Source: Escherichia coli (GTDB lineage: Bacteria; Pseudomonadota; Gammaproteobacteria; Enterobacterales; Enterobacteriaceae). Taken from it: a DNA stretch of 64,000 bases. The stretch is taken from assembly GCF_001677475.2 (NCBI RefSeq), contig NZ_CP015229.1, one strand, 5' to 3'. The notes below the pieces were generated by a model. The model was not told where the DNA came from. It saw nothing but the letters and a program-made list of their open reading frames with translations, and ran no database searches. A program made the position numbers and the translations under genes. Shown here piece after piece: positions 3,205 to 55,378 of the stretch (the stretch's first letter is position 1; each line of letters starts with the position of its first letter).

Positions 3205-4362
3205 TTATCTTGATGTTTTAGATATTGCCGGTCCGGCAGCACGCAAAGTTAACTGACGCCAGAGCCATTCCACCGGCCCCTGGCGGAAGTAACGCAGCCA
3301 GATAACAGAGAAGAGGATATTCGCCAGCCATACCGGAATAACAAACGCCAGCAGCTCCAGGCGGTCAAAATGCATAAACAAACCGAGGTGGTAAAAAAGC
3401 GTGGTACAAATCAGCGTTTGCAATAGATAGTTGGTCAGCGCCATCCGTCCGACGCAGGCGATCGCAAGCACCAGCTTAAAGCGGCTCAATTGCGGCCAGA
3501 AGCCATAAAACAGCGACGCATAGCCAATCGCCTGAAACGGCGCACTCAGTTCCCGCGGCATTTGAAGTAAGAAGGCACACCAGCGATACGCCCAGTCCAG
3601 CTGCCATTGCAGGGCGATGGCAGGAAGGTTAATGATCACCCCAATCGCCACCAGCACAAAACCAGTACGACGATAGTGACGTAAGCTGAACTGCCCTTTC
3701 AGCCAGCCGCTGCGCATCAGCGCCGCACCAATGAGCATCATCCCTGCCAGTTGCCAGCCATACTGTGCGCCCAGTGCCAGTAAACTGTTCCCAACACCAT
3801 CGGCACGATTACTGATCGCTTCAACACCACCATGAAGTTTCCAGTATTTTTCATACAAAATAGTCGACGCATCAGGCGTCCAGGCACGGCTGGTCTGGCT
3901 GTCGGAAATCAGCCCCAATAACAGCAAAACGCCAAGCCCCACCAGATAAAGCATGACGCCGGTATTAAACAGGCTTTTTACCGATGGCGCATCGCGCACC
4001 AGCCGCCAGCAGATTAAGCCCACCAGCCCGTAAGCCAGCAGAATATCGCCGTCCCAGAACAATAAACCGTGAATAAAGCCCAGCAAGACTAACAGCGTTA
4101 ACCGCGACTGGATCCAGCGTCTGCCACGGGGCAGCAACATTTGCAGGCCCGCACCAAACAGCAGCGCAAAAAGCGTGAGGAATTTCACCTGGCCGATGAG
4201 ATCGAGAAATGCCCAGGTCCATGCATCCTGTGGCGTAATAGCGCCATACCAGGCGGGATTAAGATAAGCCGCCTTTGGTAGCCCAAAGGCGCTGATGTTT
4301 AATAGCAGGATCCCCAGAATGGCGACGCCGCGAACAAAATCGAGCGTGACGTTGCGCTCCAT
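3205..4362 (-). CDS. yeiB: Inner-membrane protein YeiB (DUF418 family)
   Basis: 385-aa polytopic membrane ORF at the position and with the length of K-12 YeiB. Confidence 0.9.
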   Translation of the reverse strand: MERNVTLDFVRGVAILGILLLNISAFGLPKAAYLNPAWYGAITPQDAWTWAFLDLIGQVKFLTLFALLFGAGLQMLLPRGRRWIQSRLTLLVLLGFIHGLLFWDGDILLAYGLVGLICWRLVRDAPSVKSLFNTGVMLYLVGLGVLLLLGLISDSQTSRAWTPDASTILYEKYWKLHGGVEAISNRADGVGNSLLALGAQYGWQLAGMMLIGAALMRSGWLKGQFSLRHYRRTGFVLVAIGVIINLPAIALQWQLDWAYRWCAFLLQMPRELSAPFQAIGYASLFYGFWPQLSRFKLVLAIACVGRMALTNYLLQTLICTTLFYHLGLFMHFDRLELLAFVIPVWLANILFSVIWLRYFRQGPVEWLWRQLTLRAAGPAISKTSR

Positions 4363-4378
4363 GGTTCCTGCCTTTTAA

Positions 4379-5047
4379 TCAGTTGTGATGACGCACAGCG
4401 CGCAGAAACTCGTGGCGCGTATTCTGACTGGATTTGAACAATCCACCAAGAGAGGTCGTTGTCGTGGCACTGGTTGCATCGCGGATGCCGCGCGCTTTCA
4501 CGCAGTAATGCACCGCGTCGATAGAGACAGCCACGTTATTGGTGCCCAGCAGCGTTTGTAGCGCAATGAGAATTTGCTGGGTCAGACGTTCCTGTACCTG
4601 TGGGCGCTGGGCAAAGAACTGCACGATGCGGTTAATTTTTGACAGACCGATCACCGAATCTTTCGGGATATAAGCCACCGTCGCTTTGCCATCGATGGTA
4701 ACAAAATGGTGTTCACAGGTGCTGGTCAGGGTGATATCGCGCACGGTGACCATTTCATCGACCTTCATTTTGTTTTCAATGAGGGTGATTTTCGGGAAAT
4801 TGGCGTAATCCAGACCGGAGAAAATTTCATCGACATACATTTTAGCGATGCGATGCGGCGTTTCCATCAAACTGTCATCAGCCAGGTCGAGATTCAGCAG
4901 CTGCATGATTTCGGTCATATGACCAGCAATAAGGCTTTTGCGCGTTTCGTTATCCATTTCATGCACGGGCGGGCGCAGCGGTGTTTCCAGTCCTCGCGCA
5001 ACTAACGCTTCATGAACCAGGGCCGCTTCTTTACTGAGTGATGGCAT
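4379..5047 (-). CDS. folE: GTP cyclohydrolase I
   Basis: 222-aa [27 protein letters not shown]... containing the CEHH zinc motif (TSTCEHHF). It matches FolE. Confidence 0.97.
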
Positions 5048-8443: not shown

Positions 8444-9913
8444 TTATTTCTTATCGTTCTGCGGGAACTTCATTTCGCTGTAGCGTACGAAGTGAGTTCC
8501 TTTAATCAGCTTGTAGCCGAACCAAATAATCAGGAACAGCGGGATACCAATATACGTTGCCGCTACGCCGCCCCAGTCAATGGTATCTTTCAGGAATGCT
8601 TCGTAGTTCTGGCCCAAAGTGATAATCAGACACAGAATGAATGCGAAGATCGGCCCCAGTGGGAAGAAACCTGAACGGTACGGCAGATCGTTAATGTCGT
8701 GTCCCTGCAATACGTAACCGCGACGGAAGCGATAGTGGCTAATGGCAATCCCCAGCCAGGCGATAAAACCCGTCATCCCGGAGGTGTTCAGCAGCCACAG
8801 GTATACCGTCTGATTGCCAAACATGGAGGTCAGGAAGCACAGACCGGCAATCACCGTCGTCGCATACAGCGCATTACGCGGCACGCCACCACGCGACAGT
8901 TTAGCGAAAATGCGCGGCGCTTTACCGTCACACGCCAGGGTGTACAGCATACGAGTAGACGCATACATACCGGAGTTACCCGCTGACAGCACCGCCGTCA
9001 GAATAACTGCGTTCATCACCGCCGCCGCAGAGAGCAGACCCGCGTGCTGGAACACCAGGGTGAACGGACTGACGCTGATGTCTTTAACATCGTTACGCAG
9101 CAGGCTCGGATCGGTGTACGGAATAATCAGGCTGATAATCAGGATCGCGAACACATAGAACAACAGGATTCGCCAGAACACCTGACGTACCGCGCGTGGA
9201 ATGTTTTTCGCCGGATCTTCGGACTCGCCTGCAGCAATACCGATCAGCTCGGTTCCCTGGAAAGAGAAGCCGACAATCATAGCTACGCCGATCATCGCCG
9301 CAAAACCACCAGCAAACGGCGCTTCGCCGATTGTCCAGTTGCTCCAGCCCGCAGGCTGCGCGCCTTTGAAGATACCGATAATCATCAGCACGCCAACGAT
9401 GATAAAGACAATAACTGTCGTGACTTTGATCAGTGAGAACCAGTATTCCGCTTCACCAAAGCCACGAACTGAGATGTAGTTCAGCAGGAAGATAACGCCG
9501 AGGAACAGCGCACTCCAGATCCAGCCCGGTGTATCCGGGAACCACCAGCTCATGACCAGCTGAGCTGCAACCAGGTCAACGGCGATAGTCACCGCCCAGT
9601 TGTACCAGTAGTTCCAGCCCAGCGCGAAGCCAAAGCCTTCTTCAACATAGTTCTGACCATAAGTGGCAAACGAACCGGAAACCGGCATATATGCAGCCAG
9701 TTCACCGAGACTGGTCATCAGGAAGTAAACCATCAGGCCAATCAACATATACGAGAGCAATGCCCCGCCCGGACCTGCCTGAGAAATCGTTGCGCCAGAG
9801 GCAACAAAAAGACCTGTACCGATGGAACCGCCAATGGCAATCATCGTCAGGTGACGCGCCTTTAATTCACGGAGTAAGCCCGGCGCTTCTGTGGTTTTAG
9901 TTTCGGAAACCAT
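8444..9913 (-). CDS. lysP: Lysine-specific permease (APC family)
   Basis: 489-aa 12-TM ORF MVSETKTTEAPGL... matching LysP. Confidence 0.97.
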   Translation of the reverse strand: MVSETKTTEAPGLLRELKARHLTMIAIGGSIGTGLFVASGATISQAGPGGALLSYMLIGLMVYFLMTSLGELAAYMPVSGSFATYGQNYVEEGFGFALGWNYWYNWAVTIAVDLVAAQLVMSWWFPDTPGWIWSALFLGVIFLLNYISVRGFGEAEYWFSLIKVTTVIVFIIVGVLMIIGIFKGAQPAGWSNWTIGEAPFAGGFAAMIGVAMIVGFSFQGTELIGIAAGESEDPAKNIPRAVRQVFWRILLFYVFAILIISLIIPYTDPSLLRNDVKDISVSPFTLVFQHAGLLSAAAVMNAVILTAVLSAGNSGMYASTRMLYTLACDGKAPRIFAKLSRGGVPRNALYATTVIAGLCFLTSMFGNQTVYLWLLNTSGMTGFIAWLGIAISHYRFRRGYVLQGHDINDLPYRSGFFPLGPIFAFILCLIITLGQNYEAFLKDTIDWGGVAATYIGIPLFLIIWFGYKLIKGTHFVRYSEMKFPQNDKK

Positions 9914-33691: not shown

Positions 33692-35506
33692 ATGATTGTG
33701 CGCATACTGCTGCTGTTTATCGCTCTGTTCACCTTTGGTGCGCAGGCGCAGGCTATCAAGGAAAGCTATGCCTTTGCCGTGCTGGGCGAACCCCGGTACG
33801 CGTTTAATTTCAACCATTTTGATTATGTGAACCCCGCCGCGCCAAAAGGTGGGCAGATAACGTTGTCAGCCCTCGGCACCTTCGATAATTTCAACCGCTA
33901 TGCACTGCGCGGCAACCCGGGCGCACGCACCGAGCAGCTGTACGACACGCTATTTACGACTTCCGATGACGAACCAGGCAGTTATTACCCGCTGATTGCT
34001 GAAAGCGCACGCTATGCTGACGATTATTCCTGGGTGGAGGTCGCTATTAATCCGCGCGCCCGTTTTCATGATGGTTCGCCCATTACTGCCCGCGATGTAG
34101 AGTTTACTTTTCAAAAATTTATGACCGAAGGCGTGCCGCAATTTCGTCTGGTCTACAAAGGCACCACCGTCAAAGCCATTGCGCCGTTAACCGTGCGCAT
34201 TGAGTTATCTAAACCCGGCAAAGAAGATATGCTGAGTCTGTTTTCGCTGCCGGTATTTCCAGAAAAGTACTGGAAAGATCACAAACTTAGCGACCCGCTC
34301 GCCACGCCTCCGCTTGCCAGTGGTCCGTACCGCATTACGTCCTGGAAAATGGGACAAAATATTGTCTATTCTCGCGTGAAAGATTACTGGGCAGCAAACT
34401 TACCGGTAAACCGTGGACGCTGGAATTTCGACACCATTCGCTACGATTATTACCTCGATGATAATGTCGCCTTTGAAGCGTTTAAAGCAGGTGCCTTTGA
34501 TTTGCGTATGGAAAACGACGCTAAAAACTGGGCCACGCGCTATACCGGTAAAAATTTCGATAAAAAATACATCATCAAAGATGAGCAAAAGAACGAATCA
34601 GCCCAGGATACGCGCTGGCTGGCGTTTAATATCCAACGTCCGGTATTCAGCGATCGCCGGGTGCGGGAAGCAATCACCCTCGCCTTTGACTTTGAATGGA
34701 TGAACAAGGCGTTGTTTTACAACGCCTGGAGTCGCACGAACAGTTATTTTCAGAATACCGAATACGCGGCCAGAAATTACCCCGACGCCGCGGAGTTGGT
34801 GCTTCTGGCACCAATGAAAAAAGATCTACCGCCAGAAGTCTTCACGCAAATCTACCAGCCGCCGGTATCCAAAGGCGATGGCTACGATCGTGACAACCTG
34901 TTAAAAGCCGACAAACTTCTCAACGAAGCGGGCTGGGTGCTGAAGGGTCAGCAACGCGTAAATGCCACAACGGGTCAGCCACTCAGCTTTGAATTATTGC
35001 TTCCCGCAAGCAGCAATAGTCAGTGGGTATTGCCGTTCCAGCACAGCCTGCAACGGCTGGGTATCAACATGGACATTCGCAAGGTGGATAACTCGCAAAT
35101 CACCAACCGCATGCGCAGTCGCGACTATGACATGATGCCGCGCGTATGGCGGGCGATGCCGTGGCCCAGTTCCGATTTACAGATTTCCTGGTCATCGGAA
35201 TATATCAATTCCACTTATAATGCCCCCGGCGTGCAAAGCCCGGTTATCGACTCGCTGATCAACCAAATTATTGCCGCGCAGGGAAATAAAGAAAAATTAC
35301 TGCCGTTAGGGCGAGCACTGGATCGCGTATTAACGTGGAATTATTACATGCTGCCAATGTGGTACATGGCGGAAGACCGTCTCGCCTGGTGGGATAAATT
35401 CTCCCAACCCGCTGTGCGCCCTGTTTACAGCCTGGGTATCGATACCTGGTGGTATGATGTTAATAAAGCGGCCAAACTGCCGTCAGCCAGACAACAGGGA
35501 GAGTAG
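33692..35506 (+). CDS. yejA: Periplasmic binding protein of the YejABEF peptide/microcin C ABC importer
   Basis: 604-aa ORF from [21 protein letters not shown] (signal peptide), SBP family 5. Confidence 0.95.
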
Positions 35507-47539: not shown

Positions 47540-47616
47540 CGGCACGTAGCGCAGCCTGGTAGCGCACCGTCATGGGGTGTCGGGGGTCGGAGGTTCAAAT
47601 CCTCTCGTGCCGACCA
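47540..47616 (+). tRNA. proL: tRNA-Pro (anticodon GGG)
   Basis: 77-nt CGGCACGTAGCGCAGCCTGGTAGCGCACCGTCATGGGGTGTCGGGGGTCGGAGGTTCAAATCCTCTCGTGCCGACCA. It has a 7-bp acceptor stem (CGGCACG/CGTGCCG), the T-loop GGTTCAAATCC, the anticodon loop U-GGG-G and an encoded CCA. Confidence 0.97.
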
Positions 47617-47618
47617 AA
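47602..47618 (+). repeat. attL core (direct repeat formed by the 3' end of proL)
   Basis: CTCTCGTGCCGACCAAA is identical to 58597-58613. Extended to 21 bp (AATCCTCTCG... versus AATACTCTCG...) there is one mismatch. Confidence 0.9.
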
Positions 47619-47652
47619 TCGCCCACCGGAAAGCACCGAATAAGACAGGGAT

Positions 47653-47686
47653 AACCCGCTAATCACTTGATTGGCGGGTTTTTTTA
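47653..47686 (+). terminator. Island-borne rho-independent terminator downstream of proL
   Basis: AACCCGC-(14 nt)-GCGGGTT followed by TTTTTTT. It replaces the native proL terminator, which now lies after attR (58621-58651). Confidence 0.7.
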
Positions 47687-47739
47687 TGGTTTTTAGTCAC
47701 CGAACATCACCGGATTTATAAGCTATCAGCCGGATTTTT

Positions 47740-47791
47740 TAGTTATACGTTTAGTTATACGGGCTGGCGTATAACTAAAGCCGTATAACTA
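47740..47791. promoter_or_regulatory. Putative integrase arm-type binding sites / int promoter region (attL arm)
   Basis: The 10-mer TAGTTATACG occurs twice directly (47740, 47752) and twice inverted as CGTATAACTA (47768, 47782), 34-85 bp upstream of the int ATG. Related AAGCTAT(C/A) motifs occur at 47720 and near attR (58514-58535). Confidence 0.6.
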
Positions 47792-47824
47792 AAACCCTGT
47801 TTTTTCGTGTGGAATCATAGACAT

Positions 47825-49066
47825 ATGGCGAGAAAAACACCCCCATTAACCACAGTGCAGATCAAAGCAGCCAGACCAGCGCAAAAGGAGTACACCCTAC
47901 AGGACGGCGGTGGGCTTTTTCTCCTGGTAAAACCGTCCGGATCAAAACTCTGGCGATTTTCCTACTACCGACCATCGGACAAAAAAAGAATATTGCTGAG
48001 TTTTGGATCGCTTGAAGATGTTTCCCTGGCTGATGCCAGAAAACGCCGTAGCGAGTACAGGACGTTAATCAGTGCCGGAACTGACCCGCAGGACCATGAG
48101 AAGAAAAAACGAGAGGCAGAGGCCCGAAGACAAGGGAACACGTTCGAAAATGTGGCGGCGGCATGGTACCAGGTGAAAATCAGCCAGAATCTGGCCCCCA
48201 ACACGATTAAAGACATCTGGCGTTCGCTGGATAAATATGTATTCCCGTTCATCGGCAACACGCCAATAGATACCCTCACCGCTCGCCGCTTTGTTGAGAT
48301 ACTCACACCCATTAAAGCACGCGGCAACCTGGAAACTCTGAAACGCGTTTTACAACGCATCAATGAAGTGATGGATTTTGCTGCCAACAGTGGGCTGATT
48401 GACATCAACACCGCCGCGAACGTCCGCAAGGCATTCCCTTCCCCCACTAAAAAGCATATGCCAACCATCCGACCGGAACAGCTACCGCAGCTAATGCACG
48501 ATTTATCGGTCGCCAGCATAGAACGGCAAACCAGATTGCTAATCGAGTGGCAACTGCTGACCGTAGCACGCCCAGCCGAAGCAGCCGCCGCACGCTGGGA
48601 AGAAATAGATCTCGATGCCGAAACATGGACGATTCCAGCCGGACGCATGAAGATGCGCCGTGACCATGTGATCCCTCTTTGCGGTCAGGCGATAGCTGTA
48701 CTGGAAACAATGAAGCCAATCAGCGCACACAGGGAACATGTTTTTCCCAGCCTTAAAAATCCAATGCTGCCAATGAGCAGCCAGACCGCTAACGCTGCAT
48801 TGCGCCGGATGGGATACGCTGGTGTGCTGGTGTCTCACGGATTACGCGCCATATTCAGTACAGCAGCGAACGAGGAAGGATTCGAGCCGGACGTAATCGA
48901 GGCCGCACTCGCACACGTGGACACGAACGAGGTAAGGCGAGCATATAACCGAAGTAACTACCTGGAAAAGCGCGTGGTGCTTATGCGCTGGTGGGGGGAA
49001 TTTGTAGAGGCCGCAGCTACCGGAGTGACCATAGCCAGTGGTAAAAGGGGTATCCGTGCCGTGTAA
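47825..49066 (+). CDS. int: Tyrosine recombinase, P4-family integrase (DUF4102 arm-binding N-terminus plus catalytic domain)
   Basis: 413 aa from MARKTPPLTTVQIKAARPAQKEYTLQDGGGLFLLVKPSGSKLWRFSYY, a typical P4/CP4-57-type N-terminus. The C-terminus has HGLRAIFST (HxxR) and ...RRAYNRSNY (catalytic Tyr region). It is adjacent to the tRNA attachment site. Confidence 0.92.
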   Translation: MARKTPPLTTVQIKAARPAQKEYTLQDGGGLFLLVKPSGSKLWRFSYYRPSDKKRILLSFGSLEDVSLADARKRRSEYRTLISAGTDPQDHEKKKREAEARRQGNTFENVAAAWYQVKISQNLAPNTIKDIWRSLDKYVFPFIGNTPIDTLTARRFVEILTPIKARGNLETLKRVLQRINEVMDFAANSGLIDINTAANVRKAFPSPTKKHMPTIRPEQLPQLMHDLSVASIERQTRLLIEWQLLTVARPAEAAAARWEEIDLDAETWTIPAGRMKMRRDHVIPLCGQAIAVLETMKPISAHREHVFPSLKNPMLPMSSQTANAALRRMGYAGVLVSHGLRAIFSTAANEEGFEPDVIEAALAHVDTNEVRRAYNRSNYLEKRVVLMRWWGEFVEAAATGVTIASGKRGIRAV

Positions 49067-49164
49067 CTGTACAAAAAACCAGTAAAAGCGATGCAAACCA
49101 TGCCAAACCATCGTATAATTGCCACAAATTTAACGACAAGGCCGGAGTATATGAAAATTCTATT

Positions 49165-49395
49165 ATGCAAAATACCACCGCCTACGGCGAAGGGCTGCAA
49201 CTGGCGTTAATGGCAAATCGTGAATTCTGGTCAACATACGATCCGGAAGACAAATCAACAGCCCCCACAAAACACGAGGTAGTCAGTTTTTTGCGCTCGC
49301 GTGGTGCATCGAAAAATCTGGCTGAAAGCATCGACAAGGTGCTGAGGCCCACCAGCCTTAAATGCGGTGGGCGACCTAAGAAGTGGAAACGGTAA
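49165..49395 (+). CDS. Hypothetical small basic-tailed protein (76 aa)
   Basis: ORF MQNTTAYGEGLQLAL...CGGRPKKWKR is followed by a terminator, with a perfect TATAAT at 49114-49119 upstream. There is no convincing SD, and a competing 19-codon ORF with a better SD starts at 49151. Confidence 0.4.
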   Translation: MQNTTAYGEGLQLALMANREFWSTYDPEDKSTAPTKHEVVSFLRSRGASKNLAESIDKVLRPTSLKCGGRPKKWKR

Positions 49396-49400
49396 TCACA

Positions 49401-49430
49401 ATAGCGGCCCTTTGCGGTCGCTATTTTTTT
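49401..49430 (+). terminator. Rho-independent terminator between the int unit and the alpA unit
   Basis: ATAGCGGCC-CTTTG-CGGTCGCTAT imperfect stem followed by TTTTTTT. Confidence 0.65.
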
Positions 49431-49460
49431 GCAGAAAGAAAAGCGTAATCAATGAGATAA

Positions 49461-49500
49461 AAAACAGTGGGTACCGTTTTAAAACGGTGGGTACTGTTTT
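49461..49500. promoter_or_regulatory. Tandem 20-bp repeat / palindrome (candidate operator) upstream of alpA
   Basis: AAAACAGTGGGTACCGTTTT is followed by AAAACGGTGGGTACTGTTTT (18/20 identical). The junction forms the perfect 16-bp palindrome ACCGTTTTAAAACGGT (49473-49488). It lies 66-105 bp upstream of the alpA GTG. Confidence 0.6.
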
Positions 49501-49565
49501 TCCCGCCCTGCCCTGTTTTACCGTATTTATCACCGGAATACGCCGGATTAACGAGGTAAAACATA

Positions 49566-49772
49566 GTGGAAACAATCAGAAAAATACTTACCCGTCAGGA
49601 AGTAAAAAATATTCTGCGCATCAAGGCAGACAGTTCGCTACAGGACATGATCAACGCCGGAAAATTCCCGAAAGGCTTCAAAATCGGTCTGCGTCGTGTT
49701 GGCTGGTATGAAGATGAAGTGCTGGCCTGGCTGAAAGAGCGCGAGGAAGAAGCGCGCGGAACGGCTGCGTAA
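49566..49772 (+). CDS. alpA: AlpA-family (MerR-like HTH) transcriptional regulator/excisionase-type protein
   Basis: 68 aa (GTG start): ...ILTRQEVKNILRIKADSSLQDMINAGKFPKGFKIGLRRVGWYEDEVLAWL. It fits the AlpA pattern (L.EV...G.S.ST.Y.....G.FP.P.K.G.R.V.W...EV..W). Confidence 0.8.
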   Translation: METIRKILTRQEVKNILRIKADSSLQDMINAGKFPKGFKIGLRRVGWYEDEVLAWLKEREEEARGTAA

Positions 49773-49922
49773 TGGTGTGAGGCGTAACGCGATGAACATA
49801 ACAAAAAGCGCCCCGTTGCCGGAGCGCCCTTGCGAACAATTAACCTACTGCGCAAAAAATGAATCAGTGCAGTGGGATTATATCAACCGTGTAGCGAAGC
49901 GCCACAATTGCCGGATAACAGG

Positions 49923-49951
49923 CAAAACAAAGGCCACCCGCTACGGTGGCC
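49923..49951 (-). terminator. Rho-independent terminator (minus strand) downstream of the RHH gene
   Basis: GGCCACC-CGCTAC-GGTGGCC perfect 7-bp stem. On the minus strand it is followed by TTTGTTTTG. Confidence 0.6.
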
Positions 49952-50054
49952 CTTCGACACAAGCTACACGTTATCCCCAACGCATAAGCGCTGATTACTA
50001 TGCCGTGATTACATCCGGTTGGCAATGTGATCAGTGCGCTGGCTTGCTGGTGGG

Positions 50055-50234
50055 CTATTCCTGCTCTTTGGCCTTGCGTCGCTGGCGGCGTTTGATCTCG
50101 CCTTGCATTGACGCAATGATGAATTGTGATGTGCTTTCGCCTGATTCTTTCACTGATTCCATGGCGTTTACTATTTCGTGTGGTACACGAGCCTTTAGAG
50201 CTTGTGATTTTGCGTTTGTTGTACCCGTTGCCAT
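50055..50234 (-). CDS. Putative ribbon-helix-helix (Arc/CopG-like) DNA-binding protein, candidate island repressor
   Basis: 59 aa, MATGTTNAKSQALKARVPHEIVNAMESVKESGESTSQFIIASMQGEIKRRQRRKAKEQE. It has a strong SD (AGAGGAATAGAAATG), a beta-strand/helix/helix pattern and a basic tail. It is transcribed divergently from the replication operon. Confidence 0.6.
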   Translation of the reverse strand: MATGTTNAKSQALKARVPHEIVNAMESVKESGESTSQFIIASMQGEIKRRQRRKAKEQE

Positions 50235-50433
50235 TTCTATTCCTCTGTTGGATTGGTGGGGGACAGTATACACAGAAAAAGCACAAATAAAACTCTTAAT
50301 GTGGACCACACCTAGAGCATATAGTGGGCCACACCTTGAGGTTATCAAGGTGCATAAATGCAAAGCCCCGCAAGTGTCGTTACCACTCGCAGGGCTTCTA
50401 ACCACCAACGATAGCAGAAGTATCGAGGTAGCT

Positions 50434-50640
50434 ATGTTAAATCATACCACACACCCGCAAGGGCGGGACTCGCACAACCTGAATAAATACATCTGGCGTT
50501 TTATCGCTCTGAGCACGGCACAACCGCGCGTGATTACCATTGAGGCCACCAGCGAACAGGAAGCACGTCAGCAATCTCCTGATGGCTGCGTGATGGTATT
50601 CGCCGCCCGTATTCGTCAGGAGGTGCGCCATGTGCAATAA
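50434..50640 (+). CDS. Icd-like small protein (first gene of the rightward early operon)
   Basis: 68 aa, MLNHTTHPQGRDSHNLNKYIWRFIALSTAQPRVITIEATSEQEARQQSPDGCVMVFAARIRQEVRHVQ, with the SD GAGG 5 nt upstream. The composition and C-terminal ...EQEAR...ARI.QEVRH motif resemble proteins I recall as annotated host cell division inhibitor Icd-like in P4-like elements. This is memory-based. It is the only credible part of the 287-aa track ORF. Confidence 0.45.
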   Translation: MLNHTTHPQGRDSHNLNKYIWRFIALSTAQPRVITIEATSEQEARQQSPDGCVMVFAARIRQEVRHVQ

Positions 50641-50866
50641 CACCCGTCCGGACGCAGCCGCCGAGGCTATCAGAACGCTGATGGACGCGCTGATTGATAT
50701 TTCTGTTATCGCAGACAAGGCGCATAAGCACGCCACCAGCGAAACAGAATATGCCGGGGCTTTCGTTCCTCACTCACTGGCTGTTATGCAATTTAGTGCT
50801 GATATGGCGCTGAATGAGGCCAGCAAAATTATCATGGCTGATATGGAGGTGGTGAGCCATGAATAA
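50630..50866 (+). CDS. Hypothetical protein (78 aa)
   Basis: Its ATG overlaps the upstream stop (ATGTGCAATAA), indicating translational coupling. The sequence is helical and acidic, with no recognisable family. Confidence 0.5.
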   Translation: MCNNTRPDAAAEAIRTLMDALIDISVIADKAHKHATSETEYAGAFVPHSLAVMQFSADMALNEASKIIMADMEVVSHE

Positions 50867-51107
50867 TCATGATTATGCGGGGGCGATTATGCGAAATAAA
50901 CGTGATATTGAAGACCTGGCATTTGAAGCCCTGCACTCTGCGAAAAAGATCAGGGAAGTCGTCAATATGTGGATGAACAGCCTTAGCACCGATAAATCCG
51001 ATAGCAGAGAGGAAATTCTTATTTCTTTGTTGTTAGACCTGGCAAATACACAGGTTTCTCTGACATCTGATATTGAACTCGCCGCTAAAAAGCTGCCTCT
51101 GGAGTAA
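50859..51107 (+). CDS. Hypothetical protein (82 aa)
   Basis: Its start overlaps the previous gene by 8 nt (ATGAATAA). No recognisable family. Confidence 0.5.
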   Translation: MNNHDYAGAIMRNKRDIEDLAFEALHSAKKIREVVNMWMNSLSTDKSDSREEILISLLLDLANTQVSLTSDIELAAKKLPLE

Positions 51108-51113
51108 AAAAAC

Positions 51114-51413
51114 ATGAAAAAGAAAAATTCTGGCTTTACTGCCAGTGGTCTCCCTCGGCCTGAAATCCGCCCCGGCGATATTTTCCGGGATAACTACGGC
51201 GGCACGGTAACGATTAAAAGTATTGCCGGACGGTGCGTTACTTACCGCCGTGATGGGTACAGCTACGACTGCGTGATGCCTGTTTATCAGTTCCGGCGTG
51301 ATTTTTCACTGATACAGGCCACACCACGCAAACAGCCCACCAGCAACGCAAAGGCACGGGCAAATATTCAGAAAATGAAAAACATGATTAACGCATTCAG
51401 GGGCACAAAATGA
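51114..51413 (+). CDS. DUF4222-like small protein (99 aa)
   Basis: PGDIFRDNYGGTVTIKSIAGRCVTYRRDGYSYDCVMPVYQFRRDF fits the pattern D.(Y/F)RD..G..VT......V.F.RDGY...C..P...F...F that I associate with prophage DUF4222 proteins. This is memory-based. Confidence 0.5.
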   Translation: MKKKNSGFTASGLPRPEIRPGDIFRDNYGGTVTIKSIAGRCVTYRRDGYSYDCVMPVYQFRRDFSLIQATPRKQPTSNAKARANIQKMKNMINAFRGTK

Positions 51414-53215
51414 AACTGGCACCGAACTTAAAAAAACAGCCACACGACAAAATGACCGAAGTCATTATTTTTGCAGGTAGTGATGCCTGGGCGCACGCGA
51501 AACAGTGGCAGGAACAGGACGGGCGACTTGCTGGCGACAACGTGCCACCTGTATGGCTGGGAGACAGCCAGCTTGACGAACTGGCAGACCTGAAAATTAT
51601 CGACGATGGTCGCTATTGTGTCCGGCTGTACAAGGCAGGCCACATCAAGCCGTCAAATATTAATGCCATCGGGCAAAAGCTGGCGGCGGCAGGTGTACGG
51701 GATGCGAGATATTACCCTGAGGGAATGCACAGCCAGAAGCGGGAGGAGTGGCGCGAATATCTGGAGCGTGCGCGCCAGAATCTTTCTGATGGTCTGGTTA
51801 TTCAGCTTCCTGTTAAGAAAAAAACAGAAGACAGCGCCGCACCACTGGCGCTTAACCAGATGGGAGCAAGCCAGCGCGGCGAAGTTCTCCTGGCACGTTA
51901 TGGCGGCGAACTGGCAATTAATGCGGACTCTGACACCGTTCACCACTACAACGGCGTTGTATGGGAGCCGGTACAGGATAAAGAGTTACAGCGGGCTATG
52001 GCACAGATTTTTATTGATGCGGAGATCAGTTATTCGCAGAACGCCATCAAATCGGCGGTCGATACCATGAAGTTAAGTTTGCCCGTAATGGGGAATACCG
52101 CCCGTAACCTGATTGGATTCAGTAACGGTGTTTTTGATACCCGGACAGGCGATTTTCGGGAGCATGACAAAAACGACTGGCTGTTAATTGCCAGTGAATT
52201 ACCGTTCAGCCCGCCAGCAGAGGGGGAAACGCTGGCAACGCATGCGCCGAATTTCTGGAAATGGTTGCGCCGTTCGGTGGCAGAGAATGGCCGTAAAGCG
52301 GATCGCGTACTGGCGGCGTTATTCATGGTGCTGGCGAACCGATACGACTGGCAGTTATTTCTTGAGGTAACGGGGCCGGGTGGAAGCGGTAAAAGCGTAA
52401 TGGCGGAGATTTGCACCATGCTGGCGGGTAAGGCCAACACGGTATCGGCAAGCATGAAGGCGCTGGAAGATGCCAGGGAACGCGCGTTAGTGGTTGGCTT
52501 TTCGCTGATTATCATGCCGGATATGACCCGCTACGCTGGTGATGGTGCAGGTATTAAGGCCATTACAGGCGGTGACAAAGTGGCAATCGACCCGAAACAT
52601 AAAGCTCCCTACTCAACACGCATTCAGGCGGTCGTGCTGGCGGTGAACAATAACGCCATGTCATTCAGTGACCGCAGTGGGGGGATCTCACGTCGTCGGG
52701 TGATATTCAATTTTTCGGAGGTTGTACCGGAGAACGAACGCGACCCCATGCTGGCAGAAAAAATAGAAGGAGAGCTGGCGGTTGTGATTCGCCACCTGCT
52801 TACTCGTTTTTCTGACCAGGACAAAGCTAAACGCCTGCTGTATGAGCAGCAGAAATCAGAAGAAGCTCTGGTGATAAAACGCGAGGGCGATTCGCTGGTG
52901 GACTTCTGCGGCTATCTCATGTCGTCGGTAATGTGTGATGGTCTGTTAGTGGGTAATGCCGAAATTATTCCGTTCAGTCCGCGCAGATATCTTTATCACG
53001 CCTATCTGGCATATATGAGGGCACACGGATTCGGTAAACCTGTAACACTGACGCGCTTCGGTAAAGATATGCCGGGGGCAATGGCGGAATATGGCAGGGA
53101 GTATATGAAACGGAAAACGAAGCACGGTTTGCGTTCAAATGTGACCCTGACAGAGGATTCAGAAGACTGGATGCCATCATGTACATCGGTCACAAATGAC
53201 GATGGAAAAAATTAA
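51410..53215 (+). CDS. Replication initiator: primase / SF3 (D5-like) helicase fusion (Pri-Rep)
   Basis: 601 aa with Walker A VTGPGGSGKS and a Walker B-like LIIMPD. The length and architecture are typical of P4-alpha/PICI Pri-Rep proteins. Its ATGA overlaps the upstream gene and it is followed immediately by iterons. Confidence 0.8.
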   Translation: MKLAPNLKKQPHDKMTEVIIFAGSDAWAHAKQWQEQDGRLAGDNVPPVWLGDSQLDELADLKIIDDGRYCVRLYKAGHIKPSNINAIGQKLAAAGVRDARYYPEGMHSQKREEWREYLERARQNLSDGLVIQLPVKKKTEDSAAPLALNQMGASQRGEVLLARYGGELAINADSDTVHHYNGVVWEPVQDKELQRAMAQIFIDAEISYSQNAIKSAVDTMKLSLPVMGNTARNLIGFSNGVFDTRTGDFREHDKNDWLLIASELPFSPPAEGETLATHAPNFWKWLRRSVAENGRKADRVLAALFMVLANRYDWQLFLEVTGPGGSGKSVMAEICTMLAGKANTVSASMKALEDARERALVVGFSLIIMPDMTRYAGDGAGIKAITGGDKVAIDPKHKAPYSTRIQAVVLAVNNNAMSFSDRSGGISRRRVIFNFSEVVPENERDPMLAEKIEGELAVVIRHLLTRFSDQDKAKRLLYEQQKSEEALVIKREGDSLVDFCGYLMSSVMCDGLLVGNAEIIPFSPRRYLYHAYLAYMRAHGFGKPVTLTRFGKDMPGAMAEYGREYMKRKTKHGLRSNVTLTEDSEDWMPSCTSVTNDDGKN

Positions 53216-53228
53216 ACTTATGGAATAA

Positions 53229-53459
53229 CTGTTCACCACTGTTCACCCTGTCATAAATGTCTTTTATATCAGTACATTATAGGGTGAACAGTTATTTGTG
53301 AACTGTTCACCAAACTATTCACTGTTCACCTTTTTGATTATTTATTGAGCTTTAAGGGTGAACAGTGGTGAACAGTTGGTGAATAGTTTTTGTGAAACTG
53401 TTCACCCCTTAACATCATGAATAAAAAGGGAAAATAGCAAAAGGTGAACAGGTGAAGAG
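53229..53459. repeat. Iteron cluster, putative island replication origin
   Basis: There are nine perfect copies of the 9-mer CTGTTCACC / GGTGAACAG. Forward copies are at 53229, 53239, 53303, 53322 and 53398. Reverse copies are at 53283, 53357, 53367 and 53443. Three degenerate copies are at 53315, 53378 and 53451. A/T-rich spacers are interspersed, and the cluster lies directly 3' of the primase-helicase gene. Confidence 0.85.
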
Positions 53460-53502
53460 TTAAAATGCAAAAATTTTATTTTATTGCTGTGAGGTAAAGC
53501 CT

Positions 53503-53748
53503 GTGACAACGAAGCACGCAAAAAAACCACAATCACACGCCCTTGATTTGACAGAACACTGGCTGAGGGTGGCGATAAAAATCATCGACCGCAACGCGGG
53601 AGAAGGATACGCGAAAGCGCATCCCGAACTGATAAGCGCATTCATGACCACGGCGGCGGCAAATTTTGCCACACTGACAGAACGGGAGATTGCCGAAGCG
53701 GAACAGGTGACAACCATCAACGTTAAAACCGGAGAGCAGACAGCATGA
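53503..53748 (+). CDS. Hypothetical protein (81 aa)
   Basis: GTG-initiated ORF whose stop overlaps the ssb-like ATG (ATGA). No recognisable family. Confidence 0.45.
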   Translation: MTTKHAKKPQSHALDLTEHWLRVAIKIIDRNAGEGYAKAHPELISAFMTTAAANFATLTEREIAEAEQVTTINVKTGEQTA

Positions 53749-54044
53749 CAGCACAGATAGCGGCTTGCGGGCGGCTGGTGGCTGACCCGCAGTTAAAGAC
53801 CACCAGCAAAGGGACACAAATGGCGATGGCGAGTATGGCGGTTCCCCTGCCGTGCAGCCAGGCAGATGACGGAACGGCGACGATGTGGTTATCTGTCCTG
53901 GCGTTTGGCAGACAGGCCGACGCACTGGCAAAACACCACAAAGGCGAACTCCTGAGCGTGGCGGGTAACATGCAGGTGAGCCAGTGGACAGGCCAGAACG
54001 GCGCGACCGGGCGGCAAAAAAGGTCAACAGGGCCAGGCCACTGA
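53745..54044 (+). CDS. ssb: SSB-like OB-fold protein, apparently frameshifted (the conserved C-terminal tail continues in the +1 frame to 54111)
   Basis: IAACGRLVADPQLKTTSKGTQMAMASMAV...WLSVLAFGRQADALAKHHKGELLSVAGNMQVSQWTGQNG parallels E. coli SSB (ILVGNLGQDPEVRYMPNG...[40 protein letters not shown]). The +1 frame from 54010 reads GGKKGQQGQATDALNRAKQQSGNDEPYGDNIPF*, which carries the SSB acidic tip motif D-x-IPF. Confidence 0.7.
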   Translation: MTAQIAACGRLVADPQLKTTSKGTQMAMASMAVPLPCSQADDGTATMWLSVLAFGRQADALAKHHKGELLSVAGNMQVSQWTGQNGATGRQKRSTGPGH

Positions 54045-54128
54045 CGCACTGAACAGGGCAAAACAACAGTCAGGGAATGATGAACCGTACGGCGATAATA
54101 TACCGTTTTAAATTCTGCAAACAAAAAG

Positions 54129-54157
54129 ATGCCGGAAAAAAATAGATTTTCCGGCAT
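54129..54157. terminator. Strong hairpin separating the replication module from the head module
   Basis: ATGCCGGAAAA-(7 nt)-TTTTCCGGCAT perfect 11-bp stem. There is no U-tract on the plus strand (T-rich on the minus strand), so terminator function is uncertain. Confidence 0.4.
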
Positions 54158-54322
54158 GCTACATAAATCCCGACCAAAGGAAGTAAATACATTAACACGA
54201 ATTATCAGCACTGAAGTTGTCACGGCATATTTTATACAACATTGCACTTGGTTGCATGTATTCGCATAGCAGACATCGGTAATAGAATATATTCACAATT
54301 ATTTGTAATGAATGTAAAGAGG

Positions 54323-55369
54323 ATGAGTATGGTTGATTTATATTCGCCTACACAGCTTGTGCAGGTGGCTAATGCTGAAGATGTGCAAAAAAAATTAAAT
54401 GCGTTGTTTACCAGTTTGTTTTTCACTCGCTCGGTAATGTTTGAATCGAGAGACATTATTCTTGATACGATCGACGATCCAAATATCCCGATCGCGGCGT
54501 TTTGCTCTCCTATGGTGGGCAGTAAAGTTTCACGAGATGAGGGATACGAATCAAAAACAATTCGCCCTGGCTATATGAAACCGAAAAGCAGTATTGATCC
54601 AAATAAGTTAGCTGTGCGCCCTGCTGGTGTATCACCTGAGCAATACAATGCTTTTGGGGCGCGTAATATTAAAGTTAAACAGGCGATTGTAAATCAGGCT
54701 AAAGCTATTCGTGCACGTATTGAATGGCTTGCTGTTCAGGCAATCACAACGGGGAAAAATATCATTGAGGGCGATGGTATTGAACGTTATGAGCTGGACT
54801 GGAATATAAAACCACAAAATATCATCACTCAGTCTGGCGGTACTGAGTGGTCAGGTAAGGATAAAGAAACTTTTGATCCAAATGATGATATTGAGAGCTA
54901 CGCAGAATTTAGTGAGGGCGTCACTAATATCATCATTATGGGTGGTAATGTATGGAAGAAATACCGTTCATTCAGAGCGATAAAAGAGGCTTTGGATACC
55001 CGTCGTGGTTCTAATTCCGAACTGGAAACGGCCCTTAAAGACCTTGGTGATTCGGTGAGTTTTAAAGGGTATATGGGCGATGTTGCGATTGTTGTTTACA
55101 GCGGGCGTTATACCGACGAGGACGGAACAGAAAAACATTTCCTTGATCCTGATTTGATGGTGCTTGGCAATACGGCTCTTCAGGGGATTGTCGCCTATGG
55201 CGGTATTCAGGATCCGGAGCTAATCCGAATGGGGCTGACTAAAGCCGAACTTGCACCGAAAAACTATATTGTGCCTGGTGATCCGGCTATTGAATATGTG
55301 CAGACACATTCAGCACCACAGCCAATACCGGCCCGCATCAATCGTTTTGTTACCGTTCGCATTGGCTAA
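54323..55369 (+). CDS. Major capsid protein, lambda gpE family
   Basis: 348 aa from MSMVDLYSPTQLV (lambda gpE: MSMYTTAQLL), collinear over the full length. The blocks ITQSGGTEWSGKDKETFDPNDDIESYA and LDTRRGSNSELETALKDLGDSVSFKGYMGDVAIVVYSGRY are nearly identical to gpE as I remember it. The SD AAAGAGG is present, and an alternative start is at 54329. Confidence 0.85.
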   Translation: MSMVDLYSPTQLVQVANAEDVQKKLNALFTSLFFTRSVMFESRDIILDTIDDPNIPIAAFCSPMVGSKVSRDEGYESKTIRPGYMKPKSSIDPNKLAVRPAGVSPEQYNAFGARNIKVKQAIVNQAKAIRARIEWLAVQAITTGKNIIEGDGIERYELDWNIKPQNIITQSGGTEWSGKDKETFDPNDDIESYAEFSEGVTNIIIMGGNVWKKYRSFRAIKEALDTRRGSNSELETALKDLGDSVSFKGYMGDVAIVVYSGRYTDEDGTEKHFLDPDLMVLGNTALQGIVAYGGIQDPELIRMGLTKAELAPKNYIVPGDPAIEYVQTHSAPQPIPARINRFVTVRIG

Positions 55370-55378
55370 GGGGGAGCA

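Follow-up and report, generated by a model that had tools for sequence, protein, structure and literature searches.

The phage-inducible chromosomal islands (PICIs) of Gram-negative bacteria have their replication origin directly 3' of the initiator gene (Fillol-Salom et al. 2018, ISME J, PMC6092414). For the island EcCICFT073, a temperature-sensitive plasmid carrying rep and the putative ori, and no other gene of the island, formed colonies at the restrictive temperature; none arose when rep or ori was mutated. Replication of these elements follows AlpA-dependent induction by a helper phage; the relationship of their initiator, Pri-Rep, with the alpha protein of phage P4 has been called distant, and the organisation of their origin has been described as shared by no other known replicon (PMC6092414). 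Here, a 231-bp field of short repeats (53229-53459) is analysed, which follows an initiator gene of this type in an 11.0-kb island of Escherichia coli, within a stretch of 64,000 nucleotides of contig NZ_CP015229.1 (the 64-kb window). The comparative analysis indicates, with a probability that we would place at about 85%, that this field is the replication origin of an EcCICFT073-type PICI. Judging from its sequence, it would be a PICI origin of the published type, this copy being a new member.

The repeat field and its counterpart in EcCICFT073

The 9-mer CTGTTCACC has 10 exact matches in the 64-kb window, nine of them within 53229-53451, where five copies lie on the forward strand (starting at 53229, 53239, 53303, 53322 and 53398) and four on the reverse strand (53283, 53357, 53367 and 53443). 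Dinucleotide shuffling gives an expectation of 0.47 copies for the whole window (with a maximum of 4 among 100 shuffles), which corresponds to ~0.002 copies when scaled to 231 bp. Three degenerate copies complete the field, giving a total of 12 sites: CTATTCACC (53378-53386, reverse) and CTCTTCACC (53451-53459, reverse), with one mismatch each, and CTATTCACT (53315-53323, forward), with two mismatches and a 2-nt overlap with the next copy. Exact and mismatch searches thus return what the first-pass annotation had counted, that is, nine perfect and three degenerate copies in 231 bp, the 9-mer being found five times forward and four times inverted. The palindrome (53298-53310, GTGAACTGTTCAC) and the A/T-rich stretches between copies that it had pointed out are also present in the sequence, and the stretch quoted as an example is located at 53252-53281. 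The GC content is 22-40% in the field versus 45-60% in the flanks. The tenth perfect copy of the 9-mer (33725-33733) stands alone about 14 kb outside the island, which is consistent with chance.

It could be argued that the field is a chance low-complexity repeat or a structured RNA hairpin, and weak matches to miRNA-precursor hairpins were indeed obtained, caused by the dyad. This explanation is extremely improbable, since the Rfam matches are far below the gathering scores (for example, 32 bits versus 249), none of the 100 shuffles reached 10 copies, and the sites keep their positions while the spacers diverge.

For comparison, EcCICFT073 was retrieved from the CFT073 genome using the coordinates provided in the supplement of PMC6092414. 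Both islands have the same gene order (int, alpA, icd-like, DUF4222, pri-rep, ori, small open reading frame (ORF), SSB, capsid, decoration, cos and PerC), the origin is placed in both immediately 3' of pri-rep, and in both two sets of sites flank an A/T-rich centre. Counted from the stop codon of the initiator gene, the sites of EcCICFT073 are found at +15 +24 -72 +92 +103 +112 -145 -156 -224 -233, and those of the window at +15 +25 -68 +89 +108 -142 -152 -163 +184 -228 -236, both series agreeing within a few bp. The initiators share an N-terminal domain of the same type (55-80% identity), and the islands differ in their integration site, which is ycfD-phoQ in EcCICFT073 and tRNA-Pro here. Taking into account that the rep-ori segment of EcCICFT073 has been tested and has the same layout, the kind of element proposed in the first-pass annotation is a published one, functionally tested in a relative. 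The description of the island as an autonomous replicon is valid in the PICI sense, that is, replication after induction, and not otherwise, since PICIs have no plasmid state (PMC6092414).

The likeness extends, in a looser form, to the pathogenicity islands of Staphylococcus aureus (SaPIs) and other Gram-positive PICIs, whose origin is also located 3' of the initiator gene, with two iteron sets flanking A/T-rich DNA (PMC6092414), and whose initiator is also a self-loading helicase. However, their iterons and binding domains are unrelated to those described here, only the helicase core being detectably similar, and they have the Stl repressor in place of AlpA activation.

Layout of the field and comparison with phage P4

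The elements that can be distinguished in and beside the field are the following (signs give the strand of each site):

53229-53459: repeat field, iteron array
53229..53330: putative left half-origin, six sites, at 53229(+), 53239(+), 53283(-), 53303(+), 53315(+, 2 mismatches) and 53322(+)
53331..53356: central spacer TTTTTGATTATTTATTGAGCTTTAAG, 26 bp, 81% A+T, on the dyad axis
53357..53459: putative right half-origin, six sites, at 53357(-), 53367(-), 53378(-, 1 mismatch), 53398(+), 53443(-) and 53451(-, 1 mismatch)
53460..53487: A/T tract beside the right half, conserved (TTAAAATGCAAAAATTTTATTTTATTGC), with the lowest duplex stability of any 25-mer in the region, -24.4 kcal/mol

The left and right halves are mirror images. 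In the left half, with orientations + + - + + +, the start-to-start spacings are 10, 44, 20, 12 and 7 bp, and the inner spacers measure 35 bp (74% A+T) and 11 bp. The right half, with orientations - - - + - - and spacings of 10, 11, 20, 45 and 8 bp, begins with three tandem sites in reverse, followed after 11 bp by a single forward site and, after a further 36 bp, by two tandem reverse sites. Tandem sites follow one another every 8-12 bp, close to one turn of the helix, the clearest arrays having 10-11 bp. The duplex stability of the central spacer is -26.0 kcal/mol per 25 bp, that of the 35/36-bp inner spacers about -25.7 kcal/mol per 25 bp, and the mean of the island -33.8 (sd 3.2); the central 26-bp spacer may therefore be regarded as a candidate melting site. 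The tract on the right flank is conserved as CTTAAACGCATATTTTTTAATTTTAT in class-A relatives (the classes are defined in the next section), and the ori and crr of P4 have similar A-tracts following their tandem pair.

An exact 17-mer, ATGAATAAAAAGGGAAA, is present both in the 36-bp spacer of the right half (53417-53433) and about 40 bp downstream of cos (56252-56268). At the origin position of other class-A loci, ATGAAT followed by an A-rich run is conserved. The 17-mer might be a shared site for a host factor.

A reading borrowed from plasmids, that of a classical iteron plasmid origin (Rep_3/pi/TrfA, DnaA-assisted), does not fit. Origins of that type have direct repeats of 17-22 bp to which a winged-helix Rep binds, together with DnaA boxes and the loading of a host helicase. 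The sites of the field measure 8-9 bp and are found in both orientations, neither a DnaA box (with up to one mismatch) nor GATC was found in 53150-53550, and the initiator is itself a helicase. The field region contains no perfect match to the IHF consensus, and four IHF-like words with one mismatch, lying in A/T-rich DNA, are not interpretable.

The field is located inside a unidirectional operon, with no terminator between it and the initiator gene. Such a position would suit a mainly regulatory or copy-control element, on which the bound initiator would limit the read-through into the SSB, capsid and packaging genes or pair origins ("handcuffing"). Plasmid iteron arrays often serve both origin and regulatory roles. 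Yet it is very unlikely that regulation is the main function of the field, taking into account that the scan of 53000-53800 showed no plus-strand promoter above chance and no terminator, and that the dyad of two six-site halves is conserved across four iteron classes and matches an origin required in cis. A regulatory role could, however, exist alongside the origin function.

The octamer of the field, TGTTCACC, is identical to the sequence that the P4 record in GenBank (NC_001609) labels "ori type 1 repeat"; there it is repeated in ori and in crr ("cis required region for replication"), in both orientations as in the field. The ori of P4 has six type 1 copies (9310-9413), and crr (4291-4590), directly 3' of alpha, has five copies in each of its 120-bp repeats. 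Aligned with P4 ori (9298-9432), the right half of the field shows 65% identity and its six sites all fall in register; its identity to crr is 58-59%. A triple tandem array is found in the right half and in P4 ori and not in crr; each crr repeat holds a shorter unit, composed of one site, 43 bp and two inverted tandem sites, which is common to both halves of the field. Since each half is collinear with P4 ori, the origin of the island can be described as two inverted P4-ori-like six-site units at one locus. Alpha is reported to bind the type 1 repeats, on the basis of the GenBank annotation, of PDB entry 1ka8 and of the work of Ziegelin et al. (1993) and Yeo et al. (2002). In the searchable literature, no paper was found pairing TGTTCACC with the word "iteron".

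P4 and the island thus share the octamer, a homologous helicase with a C-terminal origin-binding domain, and an iteron element directly 3' of the initiator gene. In P4, this element is crr. They differ in that the three units of P4 are split between ori, with one six-site unit, and crr, 4.7 kb away, with two direct 120-bp units, whereas the island has two inverted units at one locus, without the bipartite ori/crr arrangement that P4 requires. In addition, the 312-aa N-terminal primase region of P4 alpha gives way in the island protein to a Toprim-like domain of 133 aa. Pfam, NCBIfam and PHROG scans of the island ORFs screened detected none of the P4 genes of the sid, psu, delta or epsilon type, and the morphogenesis genes of the island are lambda-type (capsid E, decoration D, Nu1 and cosN), unlike those of P4, which has a P2-type cos. 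The first-pass annotation had spoken of the classical layout of a PICI or P4-type ori placed 3' of its initiator; the PICI layout stands, as that of EcCICFT073 matches, and the reference to P4 does not, since it is crr, not ori, that adjoins alpha. The sequence comparison suggests that P4 is an exception to the unique origin organisation stated in PMC6092414.

The one serious alternative is that the field would be a crr-like accessory cis element, an enhancer bound by the initiator, and that replication would begin at another site of the island. In P4 it is crr that adjoins alpha, and both crr and the distant ori are needed; the unit formed by one site, the 43-bp spacer and two inverted tandem sites, present in both halves, is that of crr. 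We consider this unlikely. The right half is closer to ori than to crr and has the triple array exclusive to ori, and rep plus the putative ori of EcCICFT073 sufficed for replication (PMC6092414). Moreover, the rest of the island, outside the field, contains no perfect CTGTTCACC, just six scattered one-mismatch 9-mers, and no second cluster.

The initiator and its putative recognition sequences

The gene preceding the field and the two terminal domains of its product are placed as follows:

51410-53215, + strand: initiator "Pri-Rep", 601 aa, P4-alpha-type SF3 (superfamily 3) helicase plus origin-binding domain
51410..51808, + strand: N-terminal domain, aa 1-133, Toprim-like fold in which the zinc finger, the canonical Glu and the DxD are absent
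52886..53176, + strand: C-terminal origin-binding domain, aa 493-589 (phmmer to PDB 1ka8, E 2.4e-24)

The protein contains the Pfam domains D5_N, DUF5906 (the SF3 helicase core) and, C-terminally, Pox_D5, in addition to a weak match to PPV_E1_C (E 0.0023). Residues 134-591 are 49% identical to residues 313-772 of P4 alpha (464 aligned positions when query residues 134-596 are counted), and identity with EcCICFT073 Pri-Rep is 48% over the full length. The helicase core also matches the structure of a SaPI-type primase-helicase (7ola, E 1.8e-9). When P4 alpha, EcCICFT073 Pri-Rep and the initiator of satellite vB_KppS-Ant are aligned, the P-loop GPGGSGKS is largely invariant and the NNN and RRR motifs are invariant. 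Entry 1ka8 corresponds to the C-terminal ~100 residues of P4 alpha and bears the depositor label "putative P4-specific DNA primase"; we take it to be the P4 origin-binding domain. A single-sequence AlphaFold model of the origin-binding domain of the island protein has a pLDDT of 35.

The N-terminal part of the protein is of a different nature. Residues 1-312 of P4 alpha, which include the zinc finger and the Toprim motifs EGYATA and DRD, are replaced here by the 133-aa domain common to EcCICFT073. The position aligned with the catalytic Glu is occupied by Ala (AGSDA) and the DxD position reads K-A-G (YKAGH), and the P-E/D-G motif is kept at residues 103-105. All homologues keep the motif TEVIIFAGSDAW of this domain unchanged. 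Other E. coli elements have the same domain joined to helicases of the RepA/AAA_25 type. The first-pass annotation had placed the field directly after a primase-helicase gene. As far as position is concerned this is exact, the stop codon of the initiator being at 53213-53215 and the first site beginning at 53229, 13 bp after it, and the helicase assignment is also correct. The "primase" label is not sustained: because the domain lacks the zinc finger, the Glu and the DxD, the name primase-helicase is unproven, and priming may be left to host DnaG.

To place the field among its relatives, one genome per species was scanned, which yielded 80 loci with initiator relatives, and 450 bp after the stop codon were taken from each locus. 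At least four copies of one of four words were present in 55 of the 81 loci scored; the other 26, mostly P4-like elements of Xenorhabdus/Photorhabdus, were below this number. The four classes (word; members; residues 565-577 of the initiator; positions after the stop codon for classes A and C) are:

Class A: TGTTCACC; window, P4, vB_KppS-Ant, Klebsiella, Kluyvera, Raoultella, Pluralibacter, Pectobacterium, Pantoea and the 800-aa P4-like proteins of Xenorhabdus/Photorhabdus; Y.KRKTKHG[IL]RSN; +15 +25 -68 +89 +100 +108 -152 -163 +184 -228 -236
Class B: TGTCTACC; EcCICFT073, Kluyvera georgiana, Enterobacter, Lelliottia and Scandinavium; YKRKQ[RC]T[KR]GTISN
Class C: TCTCCACC; Yersinia, Rahnella, Edaphovirga and Erwinia; YIRKKSTKGMRSN; +16 +26 -69 +90 +101 +109 -130 -143 +174 -218 -226
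Class D: TGTCCGCC; Serratia; YKK[AS]ESKRGIQSN

For proteins of ~560-615 aa, the sites occupy almost the same positions in the different classes, and at least six genera share the 12-site layout with shifts of no more than a few bp. All twelve positions are filled by T(G/A/C)TTCACC-like words in 11 class-A loci scored. In twelve class-A loci, conservation is 0.89 in the iteron columns versus 0.71 in the spacers (Mann-Whitney p 3e-11). A variant from O157:H7, with 79% identity, keeps all twelve sites, and between the window and a closely related satellite (L087, NZ_CP148328.1) 10 of the 11 differences over the 231 bp fall in spacers, the eleventh being at a variable position of a degenerate site (binomial p 0.013).

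The binding domain varies together with the word. Among proteins with 91-93% identity in the helicase, the binding domain is 78-84% identical in class A and 67-68% identical for class B, and residue 537 and the basic segment 565-577 co-vary with the iteron class. Identity over the whole binding domain separates the classes poorly (58-62% for class A of Xenorhabdus, 67-68% for class B of close relatives), few positions tracking specificity. At the level of sequence, this co-variation is the pattern that would be expected if the sites are the recognition sequences of the origin-binding domain.

Up to five P4-alpha-like genes per genome were found in Xenorhabdus/Photorhabdus, as in Xenorhabdus ehlersii (L043, L045, L049, L057 and L082). 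Words of the type TGTTCACC or TATTCACC are present downstream in all Xenorhabdus/Photorhabdus loci. Since single genomes carry multiple P4-alpha-like genes with such words, several elements with the same iteron word co-reside in one chromosome.

The island and a possible mode of replication

The insert between the att repeats (47617-58620, 11.0 kb) is located at tRNA-Pro and flanked by yejM/lapC and an autotransporter gene, and all its genes are directed rightward. Besides the initiator and the field, the following features were identified:

tRNA 47540-47616, attL 47598-47625, + strand: tRNA-Pro(GGG) (ARAGORN) and attL, a 28-nt repeat that covers the tRNA 3' end
47807-49066, + strand: tyrosine integrase (Pfam Phage_integrase, Phage_int_M and Arm-DNA-bind_3; NCBIfam PRK09692, E 1.8e-164)
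49566-49772, + strand: AlpA-family regulator, 68 aa (Pfam Phage_AlpA, E 4.5e-8, above the curated cut-off)
49777-50640, + strand: Icd-like ORF, a 287-aa mechanical ORF
51114-51413, + strand: DUF4222 gene (Pfam DUF4222, E 2.7e-24), overlapping the initiator gene; EcCICFT073 has it in the same position
53503-53748, + strand: 81-aa ORF, first gene after the field (PHROG 1231, E 1.4e-49), its position being conserved in the closest island (L001) and in EcCICFT073
53745-54044, + strand: SSB gene, 99 aa (Pfam SSB, E 1.1e-13)
54242-55369, + strand: lambda-type major capsid protein (capsid E)
55379-55720, + strand: head-decoration protein (decoration D)
55732-56115, + strand: second AlpA-like protein, 127 aa, preceding cos
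~56150-56215, + strand: lambda-type cos site (CTACGGGGCGGCGACCTTGCGGATTTTCGCTATTTATGAG; GGGCGGCGACCT; cosN GGGGCGGCGACCTTGCGG), which resembles the EcCICFT073 cos with which it was compared (PMC6092414 supplement)
56305-56859, + strand: Nu1-type small terminase terS, directly downstream of cos
57681-58052, + strand: PerC
58593-58620, + strand: attR, repeat of the tRNA-Pro 3' end (direct repeat with 47598-47625, 86% identity)

The features by which a PICI is recognised are thus all present: a size of 11.0 kb (the usual range being about 10-15 kb), att sites at tRNA-Pro, int, AlpA, pri-rep, rightward genes and a capsid/terS/cos module, with no lysis or tail gene among those identified. The 287-aa ORF matches the Icd-like cell-division-inhibitor family over its last ~50 residues only (aa 238-281), and relatives annotate a gene of 56 to ~100 aa at this position; the real Icd-like gene is probably much shorter than the ORF. 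A tandem 8-bp unit, GGCTGGCT, is repeated about seven times just inside attR (58156-58217).

The identification of cos bears on a further explanation, according to which the repeats would be a packaging site (cos/pac, bound by TerS). Binding sites of small terminases are also short repeats near A/T-rich DNA, and the 17-mer ATGAATAAAAAGGGAAA occurs both in the field and beside cos. Nevertheless, a lambda-type cosN (GGGCGGCGACCT) is found at ~56150-56215, upstream of a Nu1-type terS, and the repeat is the recognition octamer of P4 alpha and co-varies with the binding domain of the initiator, not with terS. The packaging reading, which has a negligible probability, was rejected on the finding of this cos.

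At least parts of the island match 2,337 of 5,426 complete E. coli genomes, and the repeat field matches 670 of the 5,426, never with an annotated feature beneath. The related satellite mentioned above, NZ_CP148328.1, is a closed circular record of 10,790 bp, deposited as an E. coli plasmid, that comprises an entire satellite with int, alpA, icd-like, DUF4222, pri-rep, the same 12-site origin and a protease-capsid fusion. Evidently, its excised circular form was abundant enough to assemble, and this circle provides circumstantial support for the reading of the field as an origin.

Several observations weigh against that reading. The iteron of EcCICFT073 is TGTCTACC, that of the window TGTTCACC, and the origin-binding domains of both initiators are only 33% identical; for these two reasons, the transfer of function from EcCICFT073 rests on architecture and not on identity. 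The P4 element that occupies the position of the field, crr, is an accessory cis site and not a start site. Four A/T-rich segments are similarly unstable, which makes the melting site ambiguous. With an N-terminal domain devoid of canonical primase residues, the replicon may not be self-sufficient. Finally, the SSB of the island is truncated: its alignment to the SSB of the closest island (L001, 14746-15168), a protein of 140 aa, covers residues 1-88 and leaves out the C-terminal tail, and because of this truncation the island copy may be partly decayed.

If the field is the origin, the following sequence of events can be proposed. As deduced from the work on EcCICFT073, induction by a helper phage would lead to the AlpA-dependent expression of the rightward operon and thus to the synthesis of the 601-aa initiator. 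This SF3 helicase, of the D5/P4-alpha type, would recognise T(G/A/C)TTCACC through its C-terminal P4-type domain. The twelve sites would constitute two inverted six-site half-origins around the 26-bp A/T-rich spacer, each half gathering the binding domains of one hexamer, and the spacing of tandem sites, about one helical turn, would align these domains along the same side of the double helix. A pair of helicase rings, formed head-to-head, would next unwind A/T-rich DNA beside them, the candidates for melting being the central spacer, the 35/36-bp inner spacers and the right-flank tract (53460-53487), and replication would proceed bidirectionally. Host proteins would probably supply priming and polymerisation.

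SV40 large T antigen and papillomavirus E1 use palindromic arrays of short sites where two hexamers assemble. A mechanistic likeness may be recognised in the SF3 superfamily and in the dyad arrangement of short sites by A/T-rich DNA. There is, however, no sequence relation in sites or binding domains, and in the island the double hexamer is a prediction from the layout.

A more ambitious proposal can be formulated only tentatively, and on balance we doubt it. In it, PICIs with this allele and satellites of the P4 type would depend on helper phages that are unrelated and yet have a single initiator-iteron specificity in common, so that, in a cell carrying both, either initiator could activate or titrate the origin of the other element. 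The PICI origin would also be an inverted and fused version of the split ori and crr of P4, with a pad of two times six sites for two hexamers loaded head-to-head, and the Toprim-like domain, having lost its function as a primase, would bring in the priming machinery of the host.

Some points appear to be new, not having been found in the searchable literature: that the iteron of this allele and the type 1 repeat of P4 are exactly identical, that each half is collinear with the ori of P4, that four specificity classes share the conserved 12-site layout and have residues that track them, and that the "primase" domain is degenerate. These are modest refinements of the published picture, which in its basic features is unchanged, the field being read as a PICI origin of the published type. 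In E. coli, the field would mark the cis-acting replication site of a very common and usually unannotated element. The 12-site layout may serve as a signature for locating satellite origins and for predicting the specificity class; a short stretch of the binding domain varies with the four iteron classes. The P4 octamer and the match to ori link two satellite families treated as distantly related in their replication modules and suggest a testable cross-talk between the two.

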